Part shown: one piece after another, positions 3,209-30,175 of the stretch
Layout of the letters: every line of letters starts with the position of its first letter
How positions within the stretch are numbered: position 1 is the first letter of the stretch
From: a virus
UHGV virus genome: UHGV-0071286
Reading direction: 5' to 3' (one strand)
Length of the DNA stretch: 36,154 nucleotides
Made by a program: the position numbers and the translations under genes
The notes under the pieces: generated by a model
Seen by the model: only the letters and a program-made list of their open reading frames with translations
Told to the model about the DNA's origin: nothing
Databases searched by the model: none

Positions 3209-4423
3209 TCACAGCTTCACTGCGGTATCAACGGCAATAACACCGTGATCCTGCATCTTGCCGCTCTTCTCGGGGAAACGGATTTTTTTCAGACCGTTGA
3301 TCCAGCTGATTGCTATCTCAGTACGGTTATCCATATCCGTTTTCTTCTCAACCATGTTGAAGTGGCCGCCGCCCTTCTGGCCGTACGCATTCGCCAGCGC
3401 CTGAGCCCCCAGCAGCATGGCACGGTCGATGTTGGTCTTGGCCTGCTTCTCCTCTGTGGTTGCTGCCATATCGTTTTTCGATACAAGGACCTTTGAGTCC
3501 TTATAGAAACGGATCGGCATCCCCGCATACTTACGGACCAGAATATTGCGCCACATCGCACATTCGCCTTTGAACAGCGGATGGTTAAACCCTTTTGAGC
3601 GGTTTACGGCACGCGTCATCATCTGGTTCCAGTCCTTGCCGGACGTGGAGGTGTACCAGTCATTCCACTGACGCGGCGTGACGTAGAGGACGTAATACGG
3701 ATCTTCGCCATACAGCTCATCACCGGACAGGCGTACCGGTTGTAACGGATGAGCCATCTCGTCAATAAACAACGAGAGATTATCGACCAGCGCAAGAGTG
3801 AACAGGTCAGACTGGTCAATACTCTCAAAACTCGTCGCATCCCCACCGAAAAAATGACGATCATGCGTCGGCGGCAGTACGTCGTTGATCATGATTTTTT
3901 TGAATTCAGGGTGATCTGCCGTTGGCAGAATGGTGTCATCAGCAACAAAATCACCGCGGGCACCGGCAAGATGCACTATCGCACACTGGTCCTGCAGGTC
4001 GTTAAAGTACGTACCCAGCAGCGTTCTGGCAGAGGATGCCAGGTTGAACTTCGTACGCTGTTGGCTCATACGTCCGCCCGCATCCACCAGGTGACGGCCC
4101 TGATTAATTTTCAGGGAAAAATCAGCATGGCTGAGGTCTTCACCACGGCCTTCAACGCGCTCATCCCCCATCGTCGGACGTTTAGAGAGTTTGTGCATGA
4201 TGCTGAACGTCACTTCATCACCGGCCTGTTTGTTGAGGTCCGTGATTCGCACAACCGGTGCACCGGCACTGGTCTGCTTCGTGCTTTTCTTGTCAGGCGA
4301 AACTGCTTTTGGTGCATCCTGCTGTTCAGTGAGTATATTCACCATTGAGCGGTTGCGGTTGGCAGCCGTGAAAAGCGCCACCTGATACAGCTTATTCGCC
4401 TGGGCTGTTGTTACTGTGGTCAT
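3209..4423 (-). CDS. Major capsid (coat) protein, 404 aa
   Basis: Position after terminase, portal and scaffold in the canonical head-gene order; size typical of HK97-fold coat proteins; strong terminator downstream. Assigned from gene order, not from recognised sequence. Confidence 0.6.
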   Translation of the reverse strand: MTTVTTAQANKLYQVALFTAANRNRSMVNILTEQQDAPKAVSPDKKSTKQTSAGAPVVRITDLNKQAGDEVTFSIMHKLSKRPTMGDERVEGRGEDLSHADFSLKINQGRHLVDAGGRMSQQRTKFNLASSARTLLGTYFNDLQDQCAIVHLAGARGDFVADDTILPTADHPEFKKIMINDVLPPTHDRHFFGGDATSFESIDQSDLFTLALVDNLSLFIDEMAHPLQPVRLSGDELYGEDPYYVLYVTPRQWNDWYTSTSGKDWNQMMTRAVNRSKGFNHPLFKGECAMWRNILVRKYAGMPIRFYKDSKVLVSKNDMAATTEEKQAKTNIDRAMLLGAQALANAYGQKGGGHFNMVEKKTDMDNRTEIAISWINGLKKIRFPEKSGKMQDHGVIAVDTAVKL

Positions 4424-4445
4424 TACGTCAGTACTCCTTCAGTGG

Positions 4446-5453
4446 TTACCCGAGTTTTTCCAGAATCGCGTCAATTTCAGCGTCCGTCATGCCTCGCATG
4501 GCGGCTTCAATTTCGGTATGGGAAGCACCAAGTAACCGTTCAAAATTATCACCGGTTCCGACGGAAGCCGTGTTGCCAAGCTCTGACGGGGAAGCAGGCA
4601 CAGCCATCTCCCGTTCAGCGGCTTTCACTTTTTCTTCCGCCGTTTTCCGGATATCCGTGTTGTCTGCCTTGTCATCAGAAGGCGGCTCACTGGCTTCACC
4701 GAAAGCGAGCTGCGTACGGCGGGCCACTTCGGCGAAACGTTCAGTGAGCGGTTTGTCTTTCCATGCGGGGTCATTCTGGAGCTTCCCGTCGATGGATACG
4801 GCAACCGAGAAGCGATCCGGATCGGAGTTCTGCCACGTTTTCAGCACCGGCACGGCATTCATCGCATCAAGAACCGGTGATAAATCCTCACCACCATGAC
4901 CTTCTGCCTGCTGTGCTGATTGCTGAACACGGGACTGGAGATAGTTATTTTTACGGATGAGCGAAGCCACCGCGTCACCAATTTCCGGATACATATCCCT
5001 GATACGGGCAATCTTCTCATCAGAGATTTTTTCGTTTTCCGGTAACGGTGCGGGTTTCATACCGGCCTGGTGGATCTGAGACGTCAGCAGTTCAACCAGG
5101 CGTTTTTCTTCGGCTATCTGTCCCCGAAGAAGTGCGGCTTCCTGTTCGGCCCGCTGCTTACCGGAACGTTCAGCCTCAAGGACTTCATAGGGAATGACGT
5201 GTTTACCATCGCGGGTGAGCACACCCTTCGCCTCCGGCTCCTTCACGTCCTGCGTCTGCTCAGCACTGGCATCCGGCGTCGGTGCCGCAGTGTTATCGCC
5301 CGTCTGTGTCTGTGCTGCCTCATCCGCATGATTTTCTGTGGCGGCCTCTGTCACGCAGTCCTGTTCGTGACCGTCAATATCCACATCTCCAAGCCCTTCC
5401 AGCATTTTTTCCAGTTGTTCCGGGGTTTCTTCACCCGTAAATTCAAAATCCAT
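4446..5453 (-). CDS. Putative scaffolding protein (335 aa, acidic, helical)
   Basis: Between portal and coat; highly charged, Ala/Glu/Gln-rich sequence; ATG at 5453 with SD GGAG. Confidence 0.5.
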   Translation of the reverse strand: MDFEFTGEETPEQLEKMLEGLGDVDIDGHEQDCVTEAATENHADEAAQTQTGDNTAAPTPDASAEQTQDVKEPEAKGVLTRDGKHVIPYEVLEAERSGKQRAEQEAALLRGQIAEEKRLVELLTSQIHQAGMKPAPLPENEKISDEKIARIRDMYPEIGDAVASLIRKNNYLQSRVQQSAQQAEGHGGEDLSPVLDAMNAVPVLKTWQNSDPDRFSVAVSIDGKLQNDPAWKDKPLTERFAEVARRTQLAFGEASEPPSDDKADNTDIRKTAEEKVKAAEREMAVPASPSELGNTASVGTGDNFERLLGASHTEIEAAMRGMTDAEIDAILEKLG

Positions 5454-19339: not shown

Positions 19340-19647
19340 GACAACGCCCTCTGGTTGATGAATTTAACTATCACCACCGTCAGGTGCAAATCTTTGGGTG
19401 GTGAGACGTACAGGGTTTGCACTACCGGATCAACCAACCGGCGAGCCTTTCGGCTCCCCCATACGCCCCACCATAATTCAGATGTGCGTGTGCTTACGAC
19501 AACAAAAAACACGCTCGCGGCGTGTGTCTGTCGCGGTTGAATATCCGGGGTGCAAATCCCGACGCCAGATTTTGCTGGCGTGCGAAGAATATAATCCCGG
19601 ATATGTGTTGTCGTCAACATACCTTGAATGTATATAACAAATTTGTT

Positions 19648-19989
19648 ATGTTTACTCTCATGAACTACATTATCGAATACTACAGTGACGAGGTTGAAGC
19701 TGAGATCCTTTCTCTTCCTGAGACCTTACAAGCCCGGTACATTCGGTACACGGAGAAAATGCGTATTTACGGAGCTAATCTTGGTTCCCCGCATACAGAG
19801 GCATTTGGCGACGGTTTGTTTGAAATCCGCCTTAAGGGCTCGGAAGGCATAGGGCGTGTTTTTTACTGCACGCTAAAAGGAAAGCGAATCATTATGTTGC
19901 ATAGCTTTGTAAAGAAAACGCAAAAAACTCCACCTGCCGAGCTTAGAAAAGCTGAAACCAGAATGAAGGAGGTTAAGCATGACTGGTAA
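19648..19989 (+). CDS. Type II toxin, RelE/ParE superfamily (Gp49/HigB-like), 113 aa from MFTLMNY
   Basis: Sequence pattern …GDGLFEIRLKGSEGIGRVFYCTLKGKRIIMLHSFVKKTQKTPPAELRKAE… typical of Gp49-like addiction-module killers; on the strand opposite to the surrounding operon; downstream antitoxin overlaps by 11 nt. Confidence 0.7.
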   Translation: MFTLMNYIIEYYSDEVEAEILSLPETLQARYIRYTEKMRIYGANLGSPHTEAFGDGLFEIRLKGSEGIGRVFYCTLKGKRIIMLHSFVKKTQKTPPAELRKAETRMKEVKHDW

Positions 19990-20341: not shown

Positions 20342-20587
20342 TCACCGGATTACCACATCCCACTCCGGCTCCTGCCATCTCAAATCCGGTGAATCATTTC
20401 TCTCAGGAATAACCATTACGTCCTTTTCCCTTCGCTCCCTTTCTATCGCCATCACAGCCAATGCTGCAACCATGATGTATTTTTGTTCGTCGGTTCCTGT
20501 TTCATAACGACGCATGAGGGTAAACTCGGGGCGATCAGTAACCTCAATGATTTCGTTAATTTCTTTAATTTCGCGAGGAATATCCAT
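20342..20587 (-). CDS. Small acidic hypothetical protein (81 aa from MDIPREIKE)
   Basis: ATG at 20587 with SD AAGGAGA 8 nt upstream; start codon shares the CCATGG palindrome with the divergent DUF4145 gene. Confidence 0.4.
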   Translation of the reverse strand: MDIPREIKEINEIIEVTDRPEFTLMRRYETGTDEQKYIMVAALAVMAIERERREKDVMVIPERNDSPDLRWQEPEWDVVIR

Positions 20588-21260
20588 GGGTTTAGTCTCC
20601 TTTGATATCACATGCCCGCACTGTTTAAAAGAGCGAGCTGTTATTGAGGCATTTGCCGAAAAACAAATTGAAAAAACACCTTTTTTTAACGTCGCTTTTG
20701 TATGCAGAAGTTGTCATCGAGGAGGTGTTGCTATTGTTGAAATCCCATCAGACCACTATCACGGTCCCATGGCGGAAAGCCAGAAAAAAGACCTCGATAT
20801 TCTGATTTCAGGAAATAGCCAGTACCGTTTCCGCAAGATCTATCCTGTGGTCAAAAAAATTACCGCACCAGAATATACGCCCCCGGTTGCAGACCGTACT
20901 TTTGTTGAGGCAAAAGAGGATTTACAGAGGAGGCGGTACGACACAGTGGTTATTCTTTGTCGCAGAGTCCTCGATATCTCCACGAAAAAACTGCTCGGCG
21001 ATGAAGCAGGAAAAGAATCGCTGTCGCAACGTATTCAGATGATTTACAAAAAAGGCCTGATCACTGAACAGATGAAGGAATGGGCTCATATTGTACGAAT
21101 TGATGCCAATAAAGCAGTTCATACAGATGAAGTTTTCACACCAATTGAGGCAAGCCAGATCCTGAGTTTTACCGAAATGTTTTTAGTCTACGCCTTCACT
21201 CTGCCTGCAATGGTGGAAGCCAGACGTGAACAAAAAAGATCAGATTCAGCCTCTATATGA
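20586..21260 (+). CDS. Zn-ribbon + DUF4145-like domain protein (224 aa from MGLVSFDITCPHC)
   Basis: N-terminal CPHC…CRSC ribbon; C-terminal …ILCRRVLDISTKKLLG…IQMIYKKGLITEQMKEWAHIVRIDANKAVH…SQILSFTEMFLVYAF matches the DUF4145 pattern (R-x2-[GA]-N-x-A-x-H) as I recall it; SD GAGGAA 7 nt upstream; opposite strand to the operon; AT-rich. Confidence 0.6.
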   Translation: MGLVSFDITCPHCLKERAVIEAFAEKQIEKTPFFNVAFVCRSCHRGGVAIVEIPSDHYHGPMAESQKKDLDILISGNSQYRFRKIYPVVKKITAPEYTPPVADRTFVEAKEDLQRRRYDTVVILCRRVLDISTKKLLGDEAGKESLSQRIQMIYKKGLITEQMKEWAHIVRIDANKAVHTDEVFTPIEASQILSFTEMFLVYAFTLPAMVEARREQKRSDSASI

Positions 21261-23282: not shown

Positions 23283-24365
23283 TTACCCCCTGAAACCCGG
23301 CGGAATTTCGGTGTCCGGTTCAGAAATGTGATTCACGCAACGCAGGCTGACTGCGCCAGCCTTCGGCAGCGACCACGGATTTTCGAAATTCCTGTTCGGG
23401 CCAAAAAACGTCGATGCCTGCTGAACAAATTCAGTTCCCGCTTTCCCGGTAGCCTCCAGGTATCTTGCGTAACGCCTCACGCCATCCAGCACGACATCCG
23501 GTGACACCCCTTCGCGTAATCTGGCCCTCCAGGCATTGAACGCGGATTTCTTCGGGTTTGACCCTGCCCGATGCGGATATTCACGCCAGACCCGTTCGAA
23601 CACGTCAGGATAATCAACTCGTCCCGCAGACGGTCCCGGCATCGCCCGGGTTAACCCAATCGGCTTCCCGCTCATCGCGGAATCGGCTTCAGGCTGCTGC
23701 GGTTGGCGTTGTTGCTCCGGTTCGACGATCAGCACCTGCTGCACACAACGCCCGGAATCTGCTTCCGGTGTCGTGCCATCTGGTCCTGGACGTTCAGTCA
23801 GAACAGGACAAAAATCCCCCTGTGGGTCCGTGGCGATTTTTTCGCCATGGACCAGAAGGGTTTTATCCCTTTCCTGTTCCTGTTCCTGTTCCTGTTCTTG
23901 GCTTGAAAGGGGCTCTGAAGGGGCTTCAATTTTCCGACATGATTCACGTCTGACATCCAGGTGGAAATCATCCTTATATCTATCATAAAAGGATGATAAA
24001 AAAGGATTTTCCAGCAACGCGGAATATTCATTTCTTACCCCAGCACAACGGTTATCGCCAGGTTTCAGCGATTCACCAACCTGCCATGCTGCCATTTCAT
24101 GCACCCATACAACCTCAGAATCATGGTCATAGCTGCAAAAACCAGCCTCGCAAGCCATTTGAAGCCCCTTAGAAGCCCCTTCAGGAGCAAGTCCGGTTTC
24201 GTGAGCAATGTACAAAACAGGCAGGTAATAAAGGCCCAGCATATTGGAATGAGGCGAGGTCATCATATACAACGCCACTACCATACATTCCGGACCAGAC
24301 TTCCTTAGTTTTCGCCCTGTATCGCCTAACCAGAACTGAGGTGAAATTGTTGCGTAATTACGCAT
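23283..24365 (-). CDS. Replication initiator / replisome organiser (O-like), 360 aa, with internal QEQEQEQ tract and iteron-like repeat
   Basis: Position between cII and the DnaC-like gene; SD GAGGGG; contains repeat copy A (23625-23716). Confidence 0.55.
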   Translation of the reverse strand: MRNYATISPQFWLGDTGRKLRKSGPECMVVALYMMTSPHSNMLGLYYLPVLYIAHETGLAPEGASKGLQMACEAGFCSYDHDSEVVWVHEMAAWQVGESLKPGDNRCAGVRNEYSALLENPFLSSFYDRYKDDFHLDVRRESCRKIEAPSEPLSSQEQEQEQEQERDKTLLVHGEKIATDPQGDFCPVLTERPGPDGTTPEADSGRCVQQVLIVEPEQQRQPQQPEADSAMSGKPIGLTRAMPGPSAGRVDYPDVFERVWREYPHRAGSNPKKSAFNAWRARLREGVSPDVVLDGVRRYARYLEATGKAGTEFVQQASTFFGPNRNFENPWSLPKAGAVSLRCVNHISEPDTEIPPGFRG

Positions 24366-24396
24366 AGTCCCCTCGCATACAAGATTTACTCCATAC

Positions 24397-24556
24397 CGCA
24401 GACGGTCCCGGTATCTCCCGGGTTAACCCAATCGGCTTCAGGCTGCTGCGGTTGGTGTGACTGCACATTGGTGTGACTGCACATCTTCACAGACGGTCCC
24501 GGTATCTCCGGGTTAACCCAATCGGCTTCAGGCTGCTGCGGTTGGTGTTGTTGCTG
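24397..24556. repeat. Two direct copies of a ~60-bp iteron-like unit plus a 16-bp tandem duplication, upstream of the replication gene
   Basis: CAGACGGTCCCGGTATCTCCCGGGTTAACCCAATCGGCTTCAGGCTGCTGCGGTTGGTGT at 24397-24459 and 24489-24556; GGTGTGACTGCACAT repeated at 24454-24485; a third copy lies at 23625-23716. Confidence 0.75.
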
Positions 24557-24618
24557 GCGAAATTCTTCCAGATGTGGCAGAATTATTCCCGTGTATTGCT
24601 CCATGCCCTGCCTGAATA

Positions 24619-25053: not shown

Positions 25054-25254
25054 TTATGCAGTTGTTTTTTTGTTACTTGGGAAGGGCTTTATTTCTTCCG
25101 CATAAACGCTTCCATCAGCGTTTATAGTTAAAAAAATCTTTCGGCCTGCATGAATGGCCTTGTTAATCGCGCTTTGATATACGCCGAGATCTTTAGCCGT
25201 CTTGGTTTGCCCAAAGCGTATTGCATAATCTTTCAGGGTTATGCGTTGTTCCAT
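25054..25254 (-). CDS. cro: Cro repressor (66 aa), near-identical to lambda Cro
   Basis: [65 protein letters not shown]. Confidence 0.95.
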
Positions 25255-25278
25255 ACAACCTCCTTAGTACATGCAACC

Positions 25279-25349
25279 ATTATCACCGCTAGAGGTAAAA
25301 TAGTCAACACGCACGGTGTTAGATATTTATCCCTTGCGGTGATAGATTT
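25279..25349. promoter_or_regulatory. Lambda-type right operator region: OR1 25281-25297, OR2 25305-25321, OR3 25328-25344, with PR (minus) and PRM (plus)
   Basis: 17-bp operators recognisable as lambda OR1-OR3; PR -35 TTGACT / -10 GATAAT on the minus strand; PRM -35 TAGATA / -10 TAGATT on the plus strand. Confidence 0.9.
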
Positions 25350-25351
25350 AA

Positions 25352-26068
<717 letters not shown>

Positions 26069-26099
26069 TTGTTTTATTTTTCACGTAATAGGATGATTT

Positions 26100-26861
26100 A
26101 TGACACAGTTTCAACTTGCATTAATCGCTAGAGAAGTTGATGGAGAAGTCATCCATCTTCGCACCAAAGACGGATACATCAATGCCACCGCGATGTGCAA
26201 GTCTGCGGGGAAGCTACTTGCTGACTATACACGACTAAAAACAACACAAGATTTTTTTGATGAATTATCACGCGATATGGGGATTCCCATATCGGAGTTA
26301 ATTCAATCATTTAAAGGCGGAAGAGCAGAGAATCAAGGGACTTGGGTTCATCCAGACATCGCAATTAATTTAGCTCAGTGGCTATCTCCAAAATTTGCAG
26401 TGCAAGTATCGAGATGGGTGCGTGAGTGGATGTCAGGTGAAAGAGCGCCTGCCGAACTCCCTATCCACCTTAAGCGGTATATGACAAACCGAGGCAGAGT
26501 TCCTCATACGCACTTTTCTATGCTTAATGAACTGACGTTTAACTTGGTTGCGCCACTTGAACAGGCCGGATATACGCTGCCAGAAAAAATGGTCCCTGAT
26601 ATTTCAGAGGGTAGGGTTTTCTCGCAATGGCTCCGTGACAACCGGGGGGTTGAGCCGAAGACATTCCCAACATATAACCATGAGTACCCAGATGGCCGGA
26701 CATTCCCGGTACGTCTATACCCAAACGAATATCTTGCAGATTTCAAACAACACTTCAACGAAGTGTGGCTGCCTCAGTACGCTCCTAAATATTTTGCTGA
26801 ACGAGACCAAAGGGCATTGACGTTGATTGAGAAAATCATGCTACCTGACCTTGATTCCTAA
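26100..26861 (+). CDS. KilA-N domain protein (253 aa) in the position of rexAB; BstA-like candidate
   Basis: KilA-N signature …GYINATAMCKSAGKLL…GTWVHPDIAINLAQWLSPKFAVQVSRWV…; 31 nt after the cI stop with SD AGGA; followed by a terminator and lambda-type OL. Confidence 0.7.
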   Translation: MTQFQLALIAREVDGEVIHLRTKDGYINATAMCKSAGKLLADYTRLKTTQDFFDELSRDMGIPISELIQSFKGGRAENQGTWVHPDIAINLAQWLSPKFAVQVSRWVREWMSGERAPAELPIHLKRYMTNRGRVPHTHFSMLNELTFNLVAPLEQAGYTLPEKMVPDISEGRVFSQWLRDNRGVEPKTFPTYNHEYPDGRTFPVRLYPNEYLADFKQHFNEVWLPQYAPKYFAERDQRALTLIEKIMLPDLDS

Positions 26862-26869
26862 ATGTTATT

Positions 26870-26895
26870 CCCGGCCACAGAGCCGGGTTTTCTTT
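26870..26895 (+). terminator. Rho-independent terminator ending the cI–KilA-N transcript
   Basis: Hairpin CCCGGC-CACAGA-GCCGGG (26870-26887) followed by TTTTCTTT. Confidence 0.6.
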
Positions 26896-27046
26896 GCCTC
26901 ACCCCCCACCTAAAGACACATAACCAAATGTATTTATTGAAAAATAAATAGATACAACTCACTAAACATCGCAATTCAGATCTCTCGATCACCTCCCAAG
27001 CCACTCAACCCTGCAAAAAATAAATCCATATAAAAAACATACAGAT

Positions 27047-27109
27047 AACCATCTGCGGTGATAAATTATCTCTGGCGGTGTTGACATAAATACCACTGGC
27101 GGTGATACT
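27047..27109 (+). promoter_or_regulatory. Lambda-type OL3-OL2-OL1 operators and PL promoter (-35 TTGACA 27081-27086, -10 GATACT 27104-27109)
   Basis: Matches the lambda OL/PL sequence …AACCATCTGCGGTGATAAATTATCTCTGGCGGTGTTGACATAAATACCACTGGCGGTGATACT. Confidence 0.9.
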
Positions 27110-27177
27110 AAACACATCAGCAGGACGCACTACTCACCTGGGCGGTGAATATACAACGATTCAAATATGAATCTACG

Positions 27178-27357: not shown

Positions 27358-27741
27358 ATGACACGCAGAACTCAGTTCAAAGGCAATTCACGTTCTCGTC
27401 GTCGTGAGCGTTTAAAGGCAAAGGCATTAGCTAACGGCGTGCTGGCCCGCGAAGAAGCAATAAGTTCAGAAGTATTACACCGCCCTACTCTAAGCAGAGC
27501 GCAGATTCAGGCTAAAGGTACTCACGAAACGCCTGAGCGCATAGAAGACGCTAAGCCAATTAAGTTCATGGCACAGGACGTGATCTGGCAACAGAAAGAA
27601 TACAGACGCAATCTGGAGCGAGCGGCCATTGTGTACGCGAATGAGTTTGGACATAAGCAACCAGAAACTGGTGTATGTCTTCCAAACGTAGCCATTTACG
27701 CGGCAGGCTACCGGAAATCCAAACAACTGACGGCGAGGTGA
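27358..27741 (+). CDS. N: Antiterminator N (127 aa) of the P22/H-19B type with N-terminal Arg-rich motif
   Basis: MTRRTQFKGNSRSRRRERLKAKA… ARM and C-terminal …LPNVAIYAAGYRKSKQLTAR; SD AGGAGG 5 nt upstream. Confidence 0.8.
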   Translation: MTRRTQFKGNSRSRRRERLKAKALANGVLAREEAISSEVLHRPTLSRAQIQAKGTHETPERIEDAKPIKFMAQDVIWQQKEYRRNLERAAIVYANEFGHKQPETGVCLPNVAIYAAGYRKSKQLTAR

Positions 27742-27744
27742 TTG

Positions 27745-28458
27745 ATGACCACGCCTTCAGTTTTGCCGCAAAAATTATGGCGTCCGCTTGCAGAGATTAA
27801 AAACTTCGTTGAAAAAATGCCTGACGGCGTTCGCCTTACTGAGGTTACTAAAAAAGTTAAGACATTTGCCGAACTGTCAGGAAAGGAGAGAAACCAGCTC
27901 ATCGATTTTATCGATAAACGGGAAAGCATCATTGTATTTAAGGTCAGAAAAGAAGGTTCTGGTAACGGAGTAACCTTTTTACGCCACAAAAAATATGGAT
28001 ATCCCAAGCGGGAAGGAAACGTCACAATCATTAAGGACCTTCAATCAAAATTATGTACCAGATGCGGGCAGACAAAATCAGTCAATGATTTTTATTCAGA
28101 TGCCAGCAAGCGTGACGGGAGAGCCATTTATTGCAAGAAGTGCGAATCTGCAATGAAACGCTCACGCAGAGAATGCAACAAATTAATTCTGCAACAACAG
28201 GAACCTGAAGTGAATAACCTCAAAGCAGTTTCACCTTCACCAGAAATACTCAGAAAACAGGCTGAAGAATTGCTGAAAGCCGCCGAAATTGCGGAGAAAA
28301 AACGCCAGGAAGATGATGAATTCAACAAAAAACTTGCGCCCTTAAAACTTGAAATTCTTCAGGCCGCCGGAAAAATGCAGCTTAAACTGGACGAATTCAT
28401 CGACTGTATGGATGAAATGAATAAAGCAGTTCAGAAGCTTAAAGAGCTGACCGCCTGA
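27745..28458 (+). CDS. Hypothetical protein with Zn-ribbon and Lys/Glu-rich helical tail (237 aa)
   Basis: ATG at 27745 (track start 27742 is a TTG); CTRCGQTK…CKKCES motif; AT-rich. Confidence 0.5.
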   Translation: MTTPSVLPQKLWRPLAEIKNFVEKMPDGVRLTEVTKKVKTFAELSGKERNQLIDFIDKRESIIVFKVRKEGSGNGVTFLRHKKYGYPKREGNVTIIKDLQSKLCTRCGQTKSVNDFYSDASKRDGRAIYCKKCESAMKRSRRECNKLILQQQEPEVNNLKAVSPSPEILRKQAEELLKAAEIAEKKRQEDDEFNKKLAPLKLEILQAAGKMQLKLDEFIDCMDEMNKAVQKLKELTA

Positions 28459-28489
28459 TATTAATAAATTGCAACTACCGGAGTTAACT

Positions 28490-28849
28490 ATGAACGAAAC
28501 AGAACTGAAGCACATTATCGCCCTGCTTCTGGAAGATGCCAAACAGGTTTATCGACTTAGCCCAAATTCCGCAACGCTGACACGCATCCAGATGGCAGAA
28601 AAAGCACTGAAACAGGATAATGAAAACAGCGCATCTGAAGTTGATGCTAATGGTGAAAATGAAGTAATAGAAATAAACAGCAATATCAGCGACAGTTGCG
28701 TCGCTTACAGCCACCAAATAATTCGTGTAAGCGCAAGAATAATGGAATTGATGGCAAGTGAGCTTGAAAAGAACAACATCAAGCCCACTGATTGTTGTTT
28801 AAGAACCGTAATGAACGTTATTTATTACTCGATGTTCCGAAGTCGCTAA
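28490..28849 (+). CDS. Hypothetical protein (119 aa from MNETELKH)
   Basis: ATG at 28490 with SD GGAG 7 nt upstream (track start 28469 is a TTG); AT-rich. Confidence 0.45.
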   Translation: MNETELKHIIALLLEDAKQVYRLSPNSATLTRIQMAEKALKQDNENSASEVDANGENEVIEINSNISDSCVAYSHQIIRVSARIMELMASELEKNNIKPTDCCLRTVMNVIYYSMFRSR

Positions 28850-29788: not shown

Positions 29789-30175
29789 ATGAAAGAACTT
29801 GCGCAAAATGAAATATTTTCCGAAACCAGTCCTGATGCAATAAATGAACTCAAAGAAATTGCAGAACGCATCAGTAAAATATGCAAAGAATACAAAATCG
29901 ACTTTGTATTTTCTTTTTCAGTGCTTACAGAAGTTGGAAATAACGAATATAAGGACAGTCGTTTTGTTTTATGTGGGTTAAATGGCAAAACACCAAGCCC
30001 ATATATTCATGCTGCACGTGAAGTCGTCAGAAGCAACATTGGAGTACAACAAATCCATACACTGGCGCAGGCTCTTGAGTTTGCAAGAGAAAATTCCGAG
30101 TGCGACTGCCCTGAATGCCAGCACGAAAAGGGAAAAACAACTCACAAAACAGCAAACCAGGCAACCTTCCACTGA
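29789..30175 (+). CDS. Hypothetical protein (128 aa) with C-terminal CxC…CPEC cluster
   Basis: ORF track; AT-rich; followed by a hairpin at 30183-30206. Confidence 0.45.
   Translation: MKELAQNEIFSETSPDAINELKEIAERISKICKEYKIDFVFSFSVLTEVGNNEYKDSRFVLCGLNGKTPSPYIHAAREVVRSNIGVQQIHTLAQALEFARENSECDCPECQHEKGKTTHKTANQATFH

Follow-up and report, generated by a model that had tools for sequence, protein, structure and literature searches.

BstA of BTP1 and its homologs from Escherichia coli and Klebsiella are expressed in the lysogen and colocalise with phage DNA (Owen et al. 2021, PMC8585504). The three proteins (BstA-BTP1, BstA-Ec and BstA-Kp) block phage DNA replication and abort the infection, and each of them has a cognate DNA element, aba, by which it is suppressed and which in BTP1 comprises 63 bp across the start codon (-29 to +34) with CCCGCC direct repeats as its bounds (PMC8585504). 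Owen and co-workers also pointed out that bstA lies downstream of the repressor, in the slot that lambda uses for rexAB, the products of which act as a sensor plus a membrane protein (PMC8585504). Here we analyse one such slot in the virus genome UHGV-0071286, a stretch of 36,154 nucleotides (nt) to which we refer as the window. Between a near-lambda cI and lambda-type OL/PL it holds a single gene for a protein of 253 amino acids (aa), which joins an N-terminal KilA-N domain to a C-terminal domain of the BstA type and is probably a phage-exclusion factor. The placement of BstA in the rex slot is already published, and the gene alone is of modest interest. The covarying palindrome that lies within its KilA-N coding sequence was not anticipated, and it is directly testable.

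The gene in the rexAB slot and its two domains

The open reading frame (ORF) of the 253-aa protein (26100-26861, + strand) has an ATG start and begins 31 nt past the cI stop codon. Its surroundings are those of lambda: the CI proteins of lambda and of the window differ at 2 of 237 residues, OL3 (27047), OL2 (27067) and OL1 (27091) show no difference from lambda, and a PL-like promoter lies at 27081-27109. Two BLASTN blocks align with lambda, the left one at window 25201-26069 (lambda 38094-37226, 97%) and the right one at window 26870-27131 (lambda 35824-35567, 90%). An 800-bp cassette (26070-26869) therefore stands exactly in place of rexA-rexB (lambda 35825-37225), and both the coordinates and the breakpoints agree with the position that the initial annotation had given to the gene. 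When lambda 35000-38100 was compared by BLASTN only the flanks aligned, with no similarity to rexA-rexB. The gene shares with rexA-rexB the slot, the flanks and the presumed transcription with cI, and RexAB has an exclusion role in the lysogen; it differs in being one gene instead of two, and the mechanism of RexAB is a different one.

The initial annotation had also credited the gene with a terminator of its own. However, the flank shared with lambda begins with the terminator stem, and the same terminator is found in lambda and, behind classic bstA, in both BTP1 and E. coli O178:H19; judged by this comparison, it is a property of the slot and not of the 253-aa gene. Since no terminator-like site was seen in the region between cI and the gene, it is reasonable to infer that the two are co-transcribed. 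In E. coli O178:H19 (NZ_CP024289) a classic bstA of 301 aa stands behind an equally lambda-like cI, with the same two junctions. Consequently, the window gene and classic bstA are alternative cassettes of one slot. The viable phage PhiR5_2 is 99.8% identical in this region, the gene being labelled 'hypothetical protein' there, and E. coli ML35 shows 100% identity over window positions 26069-26900.

The N-terminal half of the protein matches Pfam KilA-N (PF04383) over residues 13-112 (E=8.2e-27; 93.6 bits against a cutoff of 23.8), which bears out the KilA-N signature that had been read from the sequence. The C-terminal half had been taken as uncharacterised, but profile, BLASTP and hhalign comparisons all identify it. 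The PADLOC BstA model (PDLC02356) matches residues 120-237 (E=2.5e-20), BLASTP aligns residues 133-251 with residues 171-302 of BstA from BTP1 (29% identity, E=5e-15), and hhalign of 60 relatives of the window protein against 48 classic BstA proteins gives a probability of 98.2% (E=5e-14) for the C domain only. According to precomputed Pfam matches all relatives, and likewise the identical protein, have PF04383 followed by PF26567, whereas classic BstA has PF26567 alone; the latter family is named BstA_C, 'BstA-like C-terminal domain'. Eleven residues are invariant in both types of BstA (R126, N130, P135, E144, D167, S169, G171, H194, P208, F215 and Y231), and PHROG 6287 ('BstA abortive infection system') matches the whole window protein (E=1.8e-82) as well as each half separately. 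On the strength of these comparisons the C-terminal half is identified as the C-terminal domain of BstA, which occupies about residues 156-307 in BstA-BTP1, and not as an antirepressor domain. An AlphaFold2 model of the BstA_C domain alone reached a predicted local distance difference test score of 93.8 and a predicted template modelling score of 0.86, and the fold had no relative among solved or viral structures (Foldseek against viral structures, E<=0.001).

The domain composition also bears on the idea that the protein could be a KilA/Ant-type antirepressor or a host-killing protein of lytic growth. An N-terminal KilA-N domain is found in P1 KilA and in many 'antirepressors', and BstA_C shares its N-terminal partners Bro-N, Rha, AntA and ORF6N with antirepressor-like proteins. 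However, a Pfam scan at E up to 1 returned KilA-N alone, with no match to ANT/KilA-C (PF03374) or P22_AR_C. KilA-C/Ant homology without a phage-exclusion phenotype, or a missing KilA-N match, had been named beforehand as findings that would speak against a BstA-like protein; KilA-N was found and ANT/KilA-C was not. Moreover, an antirepressor co-transcribed with cI would destabilise lysogeny, and the nin region of the window already has separate antirepressor-like genes. We rejected this reading for want of an ANT/KilA-C domain and because the gene is in the repressor operon, and we consider it very improbable. In fold and signature the N-terminal half is like that of the KilA-N/APSES proteins (P1 KilA, phage Bro/Ant-type proteins, yeast Mbp1 and Bqt4), from which the window protein differs by having BstA_C as its C-terminal partner instead of KilA-C/ANT.

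Classic BstA and the window protein have in common the homologous C domain (PF26567), PHROG 6287 and the plan of a DNA-binding-type N domain followed by a C domain, and each is encoded by a single gene directly downstream of a prophage repressor and ahead of the same terminator. They differ in length (about 300-310 aa for classic BstA against 253 aa) and in the N domain, which is a canonical KilA-N in the window protein and has no Pfam KilA-N match in classic BstA. The BstA-like reading of the initial annotation is thus supported by C-domain homology and synteny, in the profile and alignment comparisons given above, and its impression of a shorter and perhaps distinct protein agrees with the lengths, with the canonical KilA-N domain and with the 42% coverage of the PADLOC model. 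From these comparisons the window gene is best filed as a distinct variant of the BstA kind, with a shared effector domain and slot, a different N domain and no direct repeats of the BTP1 aba type at its start codon. Short entries in Table S1 of Owen et al. (PMC8585504), such as the one from Hafnia alvei (351 nt), are of a size that would fit the KilA-N+BstA_C family.

Distribution of the gene and of the BstA_C module

At least 924 contigs encode the exact 253-aa protein, and the 90% cluster to which it belongs extends over Escherichia, Klebsiella, Enterobacter, Cronobacter, Citrobacter and Pectobacterium, the members being annotated everywhere as 'KilA-N domain-containing' or 'hypothetical' only. 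Among complete E. coli genomes 139 of 5426 have the gene (22 at >=95% nucleotide identity and 117 at about 78%), and 382 species-representative genomes were matched, with 80 species-level loci from many phyla. In all eight distinct contexts the exact protein follows an S24-type repressor, which is of a different immunity type in one of them (L017), and in a Proteus phage cI is followed by an 80% homolog in the same order as in the window. Further homologs were found at a bare chromosomal site and in a Prim-Pol island, and their defence-like neighbours include Abi_C at a prophage end and a RES-Xre toxin-antitoxin pair nearby.

Between the L017 lineage and the window 29 of the 762 nucleotides of the gene differ, all of them synonymously and with no amino-acid change. 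Because 29 synonymous and 0 non-synonymous differences separate the two lineages, we judge the gene to be real and under purifying selection. L017 (positions 3959-4792; GCA_015643915.1) has the same cassette at 95.6% nucleotide identity, with an identical protein but beside a different repressor and cro, and the cassette there retains the last 10 nt of lambda cI (GTTTGGGTGA) as well as the slot terminator. The lambda remnant and the terminator show that recombination at those joints transfers the cassette as a whole.

The BstA_C superfamily is small, with 414 clusters at 50% identity among 1.84 billion representatives. Its N-terminal partners are KilA-N, Bro-N (19), Rha (14), AntA (11) and ORF6N (2), where the last four counts come from the 51 proteins that were unmatched by two in-house hidden Markov models of N domains (window family and classic BstA). 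With such a range of partners BstA_C is a constant module behind interchangeable DNA-binding domains of phages, in agreement with a targeting-plus-effector design. The representatives of BstA_C include P0282, P0316, P0371 and P0280 (alignment A4). In P0282 (1230 aa) KilA-N+BstA_C stands at the end of a PriCT_2/DUF3987 primase-helicase, which could be a gene-calling artefact, and in P0316 a DUF559/REase-like (nuclease-like) domain comes after BstA_C.

A palindrome within the KilA-N coding sequence

The search for an aba-like element began at the 5' end of the gene, where 75 distant homologs revealed no excess synonymous constraint. A nested inverted repeat over the start codon (26091-26154) was considered and rejected, as neither its DNA fold (z=-1.7) nor its RNA fold (z=-0.7) was significant and the repeat is not conserved in L022. 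In the Ec-type bstA of E. coli O178:H19 (L006, NZ_CP024289) we observed ATCCCT direct repeats at -34/+23. Their spacing of 57 nt is almost that of the CCCGCC(A) repeats at the two ends of aba in BTP1 (L002; 56 nt), and by this analogy they may mark the aba of the Ec type.

Within the window gene codon sharing is raised at codons 57-72 (permutation p=0.002), although relatedness alone could explain this. It overlaps a stretch of 200 nt (26208-26407, gene nt 109-308) without any difference from L017 and L021, the 29 synonymous differences being elsewhere in the gene, and the two observations together led to a palindrome at codons 58-65. The invariant stretch could be a recombination tract or could reflect constraint around the palindrome. 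The initial annotation had raised the matter of an anti-defence DNA element inside the gene; an element was indeed found there, and an anti-defence role for it is a speculative possibility.

The palindrome is present in one copy in the 36-kb window. Taken with its outer arms, the 44-nt stretch 26262-26305 folds as a single strand with -19.1 kcal/mol (z=-5.0). Among the 80 species-level homologs 44 have a palindrome of 16-26 bp at the same position with the centre GGAATTCC, and about six more have one with other centres. Examples, given as the encoded peptide and the DNA, are DMGIPIS (GATATGGGAATTCCCATATC), ETGIPVS (GAAACGGGAATTCCCGTTTC), DIGIPIS (GATATCGGAATTCCGATATC), DVGIPTS (GATGTCGGAATTCCGACATC) and SAGIPAD (TCTGCGGGAATTCCCGCAGA); compensatory changes in the arms alter even the encoded peptide. 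Pairs at a distance of 0-11 from the centre are of the Watson-Crick type in 30-44 of the 44 sequences, and background is reached from distance 12.

Covariation was evaluated on 42 distinct sequences with 500 shuffles. Paired cells amounted to 92.1% (74.7 ± 1.2% after shuffling), 68 cells were changed on both sides (18.4 ± 3.2 after shuffling) and the covariation score was 0.418 (0.134 after shuffling), and for each of these measures 0/500 shuffles reached the observed value. Registers shifted by 1-3 columns were paired at 29-49%. Compensatory changes were seen in 9 of the 12 pairs, synonymous positions included: the wobble position of codon 60 pairs with that of Pro63 (G-C in 28, C-G in 13), and the wobble position of Gly61 with that of Ile62 (A-T in 27, T-A in 3). 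Because wobble positions covary, the palindrome is not a by-product of the protein sequence.

The element is not confined to one place or to one type of gene. Three homologs that lack the internal dyad have a very similar palindrome 7-14 nt past the ORF (stop codon included; TCGATATCGTTTAAACGATATCGA, TTTCGATATCGTGATCACGATATCGAAA and ACCGATGCCGAGATACCGGCATCGGT), and a fourth has a palindrome 324 nt upstream. A dyad at the homologous position is likewise seen in KilA-N genes whose C-terminal domain is not BstA_C. Scored at this position, 40 distinct viral KilA-N genes gave a best dyad score of 8.7/12, compared with 6.27 ± 0.97 for control positions taken from the same genes, and >=9/12 was reached in 62% versus 1.7% at the controls (Mann-Whitney p=5e-22). 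This set was obtained by a contig scan led by a distant KilA-N gene, whereas a scan with the N-domain alignment gave almost only near-identical copies. The centre of the palindrome encodes seven residues (GIPxSEL) that form an insertion when the domain is aligned with yeast Mbp1, and our literature search found no paper linking KilA-N genes with a palindrome. As far as comparative evidence goes, we take the palindrome to be a nucleic-acid element under selection that goes with this class of KilA-N genes. In the genes without BstA_C from phages of Bacteroides, cyanobacteria and others (L105-L108, L191-L270), where the dyad is present, the arms and the encoded peptides are very different, e.g. 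CCAAACTGAAAATTATCAGTTTGG and CCGTTAGGCATATGTGCCTAACG.

An element of this kind might act in the transcript, as an mRNA hairpin that affects translation rate, ribosome pausing or transcript stability, and not as a protein-binding DNA site. Its strong single-strand fold would suit a hairpin of RNA or of single-stranded DNA, in the more distant KilA-N genes the 4-6 nt at the centre often stay unpaired like a loop, and the three displaced copies just past the stop codon are still within the transcript. However, three features favour a duplex DNA site for a dimeric protein. First, pairing in the GIP group extends to the very centre (GGA-ATT versus GGT-ATA at two synonymous sites), which a loop would not need. 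Secondly, the mismatches have no G-U bias (6 G.T versus 9 A.C, pairs d=2-11), and thirdly, both strands fold equally well. Rfam has no family that matches at the palindrome. We regard the hairpin as possible, but would not expect it.

The KilA-N domain encoded by the same DNA is the obvious candidate ligand of a duplex site, and we speculate that its binding could lead to autoregulation in general. A more specific speculation is that the palindrome is the site recognised by this KilA-N domain and confers an aba-like self-immunity that recombination could not separate from the gene, which we hold to be rather doubtful. Like the aba of BTP1, which is short, variant-specific and situated partly or wholly within the defence gene, the palindrome lies in the gene and its arms vary. 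Unlike aba, which has 63 bp, extends over the start codon, is bounded by direct repeats and is not palindromic, it is an inverted repeat of 22-24 bp situated about 175 nt into the gene, and it is also present in KilA-N genes without BstA_C.

Proposed function, other features of the window and meaning

We propose that the 253-aa protein is a phage-exclusion (abortive-infection) factor of the BstA family, which works as a single protein and is expressed in the lysogen, and homology together with synteny makes this probable, if far from certain. The protein would be made from PRM/PRE together with CI. On infection by another phage the KilA-N domain would bring it to DNA, where BstA_C would then block phage DNA replication, so that the infected cell gives no progeny, as has been shown for the BstA proteins from BTP1, E. 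coli and Klebsiella. PhiR5_2 with its 99.8% identity demonstrates that the resident phage is viable, and the phage therefore needs an escape from its own protein. Speculatively, this escape may use the 22-bp palindrome: the protein would recognise it as its own site on the DNA, and the palindrome would then work either as an autoregulatory operator or, in the manner of aba, as a decoy that depends on copy number.

These proposals should be interpreted with some caution, since a number of observations weigh against them. The PADLOC BstA profile covers the C-terminal half only (positions 149-271 of 292, 42%, 70.8 bits), whereas classic BstA proteins match the model over positions 3-291 with 350-412 bits. 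PHROG 6287 places the N-terminal halves of the window protein and of classic BstA on the same profile region, but homology of the two kinds of N domain was not supported when the families were compared by hhalign (E=0.14, probability 0.4%), the alignment being colinear but unsupported. By structure comparison the BstA_C fold offers no clue to its activity. An S24 repressor is found upstream in only 4 of the 80 species-level homologs, so that the linkage to a repressor is not family-wide, and the commoner 78% variant in E. coli sits in the nin region beside hok. No direct repeats of >=6 nt flank the start codon of the window gene, where BTP1 has CCCGCCA repeats at -28/+28; aba has no sequence definition outside BTP1. 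As regards the palindrome, about 30 of the 80 homologs (the 'QTGLPE' type) are without any dyad, and the element is general to KilA-N genes, whereas in or near four classic bstA genes there is no palindrome whose arms reach 8 bp; it can thus not be equated with aba. Finally, literature searches by the accessions of the KilA-N+BstA_C subfamily, and for KilA-N plus anti-phage, returned no experiment on this subfamily, and no paper was found for PF26567 or for the biology of PhiR5_2.

Some of these points would suit a sequence-specific DNA-binding regulator without any role in defence, whose targets would be the prophage switch or host genes and which would control its own synthesis by binding to the palindrome. 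The generic annotation of KilA-N proteins is that of regulators (PHROG 129), many homologs lie in contexts other than prophages, and a dyad that accompanies other C-terminal domains is more in keeping with a general autoregulatory site than with one specific to BstA. On the other hand, the C-terminal half is a domain of a protein for which abortive infection has been proven by experiment (PMC8585504), the slot carries exclusion genes in lambda and in other phages, and the neighbours Abi_C and RES-Xre point to defence. A regulator of this sort is the main alternative to a phage-exclusion factor, yet in our view an unlikely one.

The coordinates of the locus are collected in Table 1.

Table 1. 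Features of the rexAB slot and its flanks in the window (UHGV-0071286).
Feature	Position	Strand	Remarks
cI repressor, lambda immunity type (HTH_3 + Peptidase_S24)	25355..26068	+	ORF; Pfam domains on identical locus
rexA-rexB replacement cassette, cI stop codon to slot terminator	26070..26869	+	BLASTN breakpoints against lambda
Shine-Dalgarno AGGA	26090..26093	+	6 nt ahead of ATG; read from sequence
Gene for KilA-N + BstA_C protein, 253 aa	26100..26861	+	
KilA-N / APSES-fold DNA-binding domain, residues 13-112	26136..26435	+	
Outer arms of palindrome, GAATTA and TAATTC	26262-26267; 26299-26304		
22-bp palindrome CGATATGGG-GATT-CCCATATCG	26273..26294	.	codons 58-65, encoding RDMGIPIS
BstA_C domain (PF26567), about residues 120-252	26457..26855	+	
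Intrinsic terminator of immunity transcript (6 G-C pairs, then TTTTCTTTGC)	26870..26897	+	stem 26870-26887, T run
OL3, OL2, OL1 + PL promoter	27047..27109	+	
N antiterminator (N_peptide type, not lambda N)	27358..27741	+	ORF

Some further features of the window were observed outside the slot. The N gene encodes 127 aa of the N_peptide (PF25694) type and stands beside lambda-type cI, OL and PL; in ML35 an N gene of this type is annotated merely as a pseudogene fragment. Three ORFs that come after N in the PL operon (27742-28458, 28469-28849 and 29789-30175, all +) have no Pfam or PADLOC match, and the first of them (238 aa) has paired Cys motifs (CTRCG...CKKC). Upstream of cI, a repeat of 60-85 nt (CCGCAGACGGTCCCGG...GGCTGCTGCGGTTGG) is present in three copies (23624-23709, 24396-24458 and 24490-24548), which lie in or just upstream of an O-like replication gene (23283-24365, -) and in a small ORF (24386-24604), and a perfect 16-nt tandem duplication (TTGGTGTGACTGCACA x2) is found at 24452-24483. 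Either iterons of an origin or repeated modules of a protein (QQPQQPEAD) may explain the repeats near the O-like gene. Among the nin-region genes, which are on the - strand, two genes are on the + strand: one for a DUF4145 protein of 248 aa (20514-21257) without a PADLOC match, and one for a Gp49/HigB-like toxin-type protein (19522-19986) with a weak PADLOC NsnC match. They are possibly further moron, toxin-antitoxin or defence cargo.

BstA is among the few prophage defences for which a self-immunity DNA element has been described, and the window gene shows its effector domain to be a module that comes after many different phage DNA-binding domains. The version with KilA-N is common, and in lambda-immunity prophages it takes over the site of rexAB. 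With the covarying palindrome there is a concrete and cheap handle on the DNA target of KilA-N and on how a prophage avoids its own BstA-type protein, and the differences in the arms between homologs provide a natural set of cognate and non-cognate pairs. Should the KilA-N domain bind the palindrome of its own gene, a large class of KilA-N genes would carry the binding site within the very nucleotides that encode part of the domain, and a replicating phage could titrate or switch off its own BstA-type protein. This would be the first defined DNA target for the KilA-N domains of bacteria and phages.

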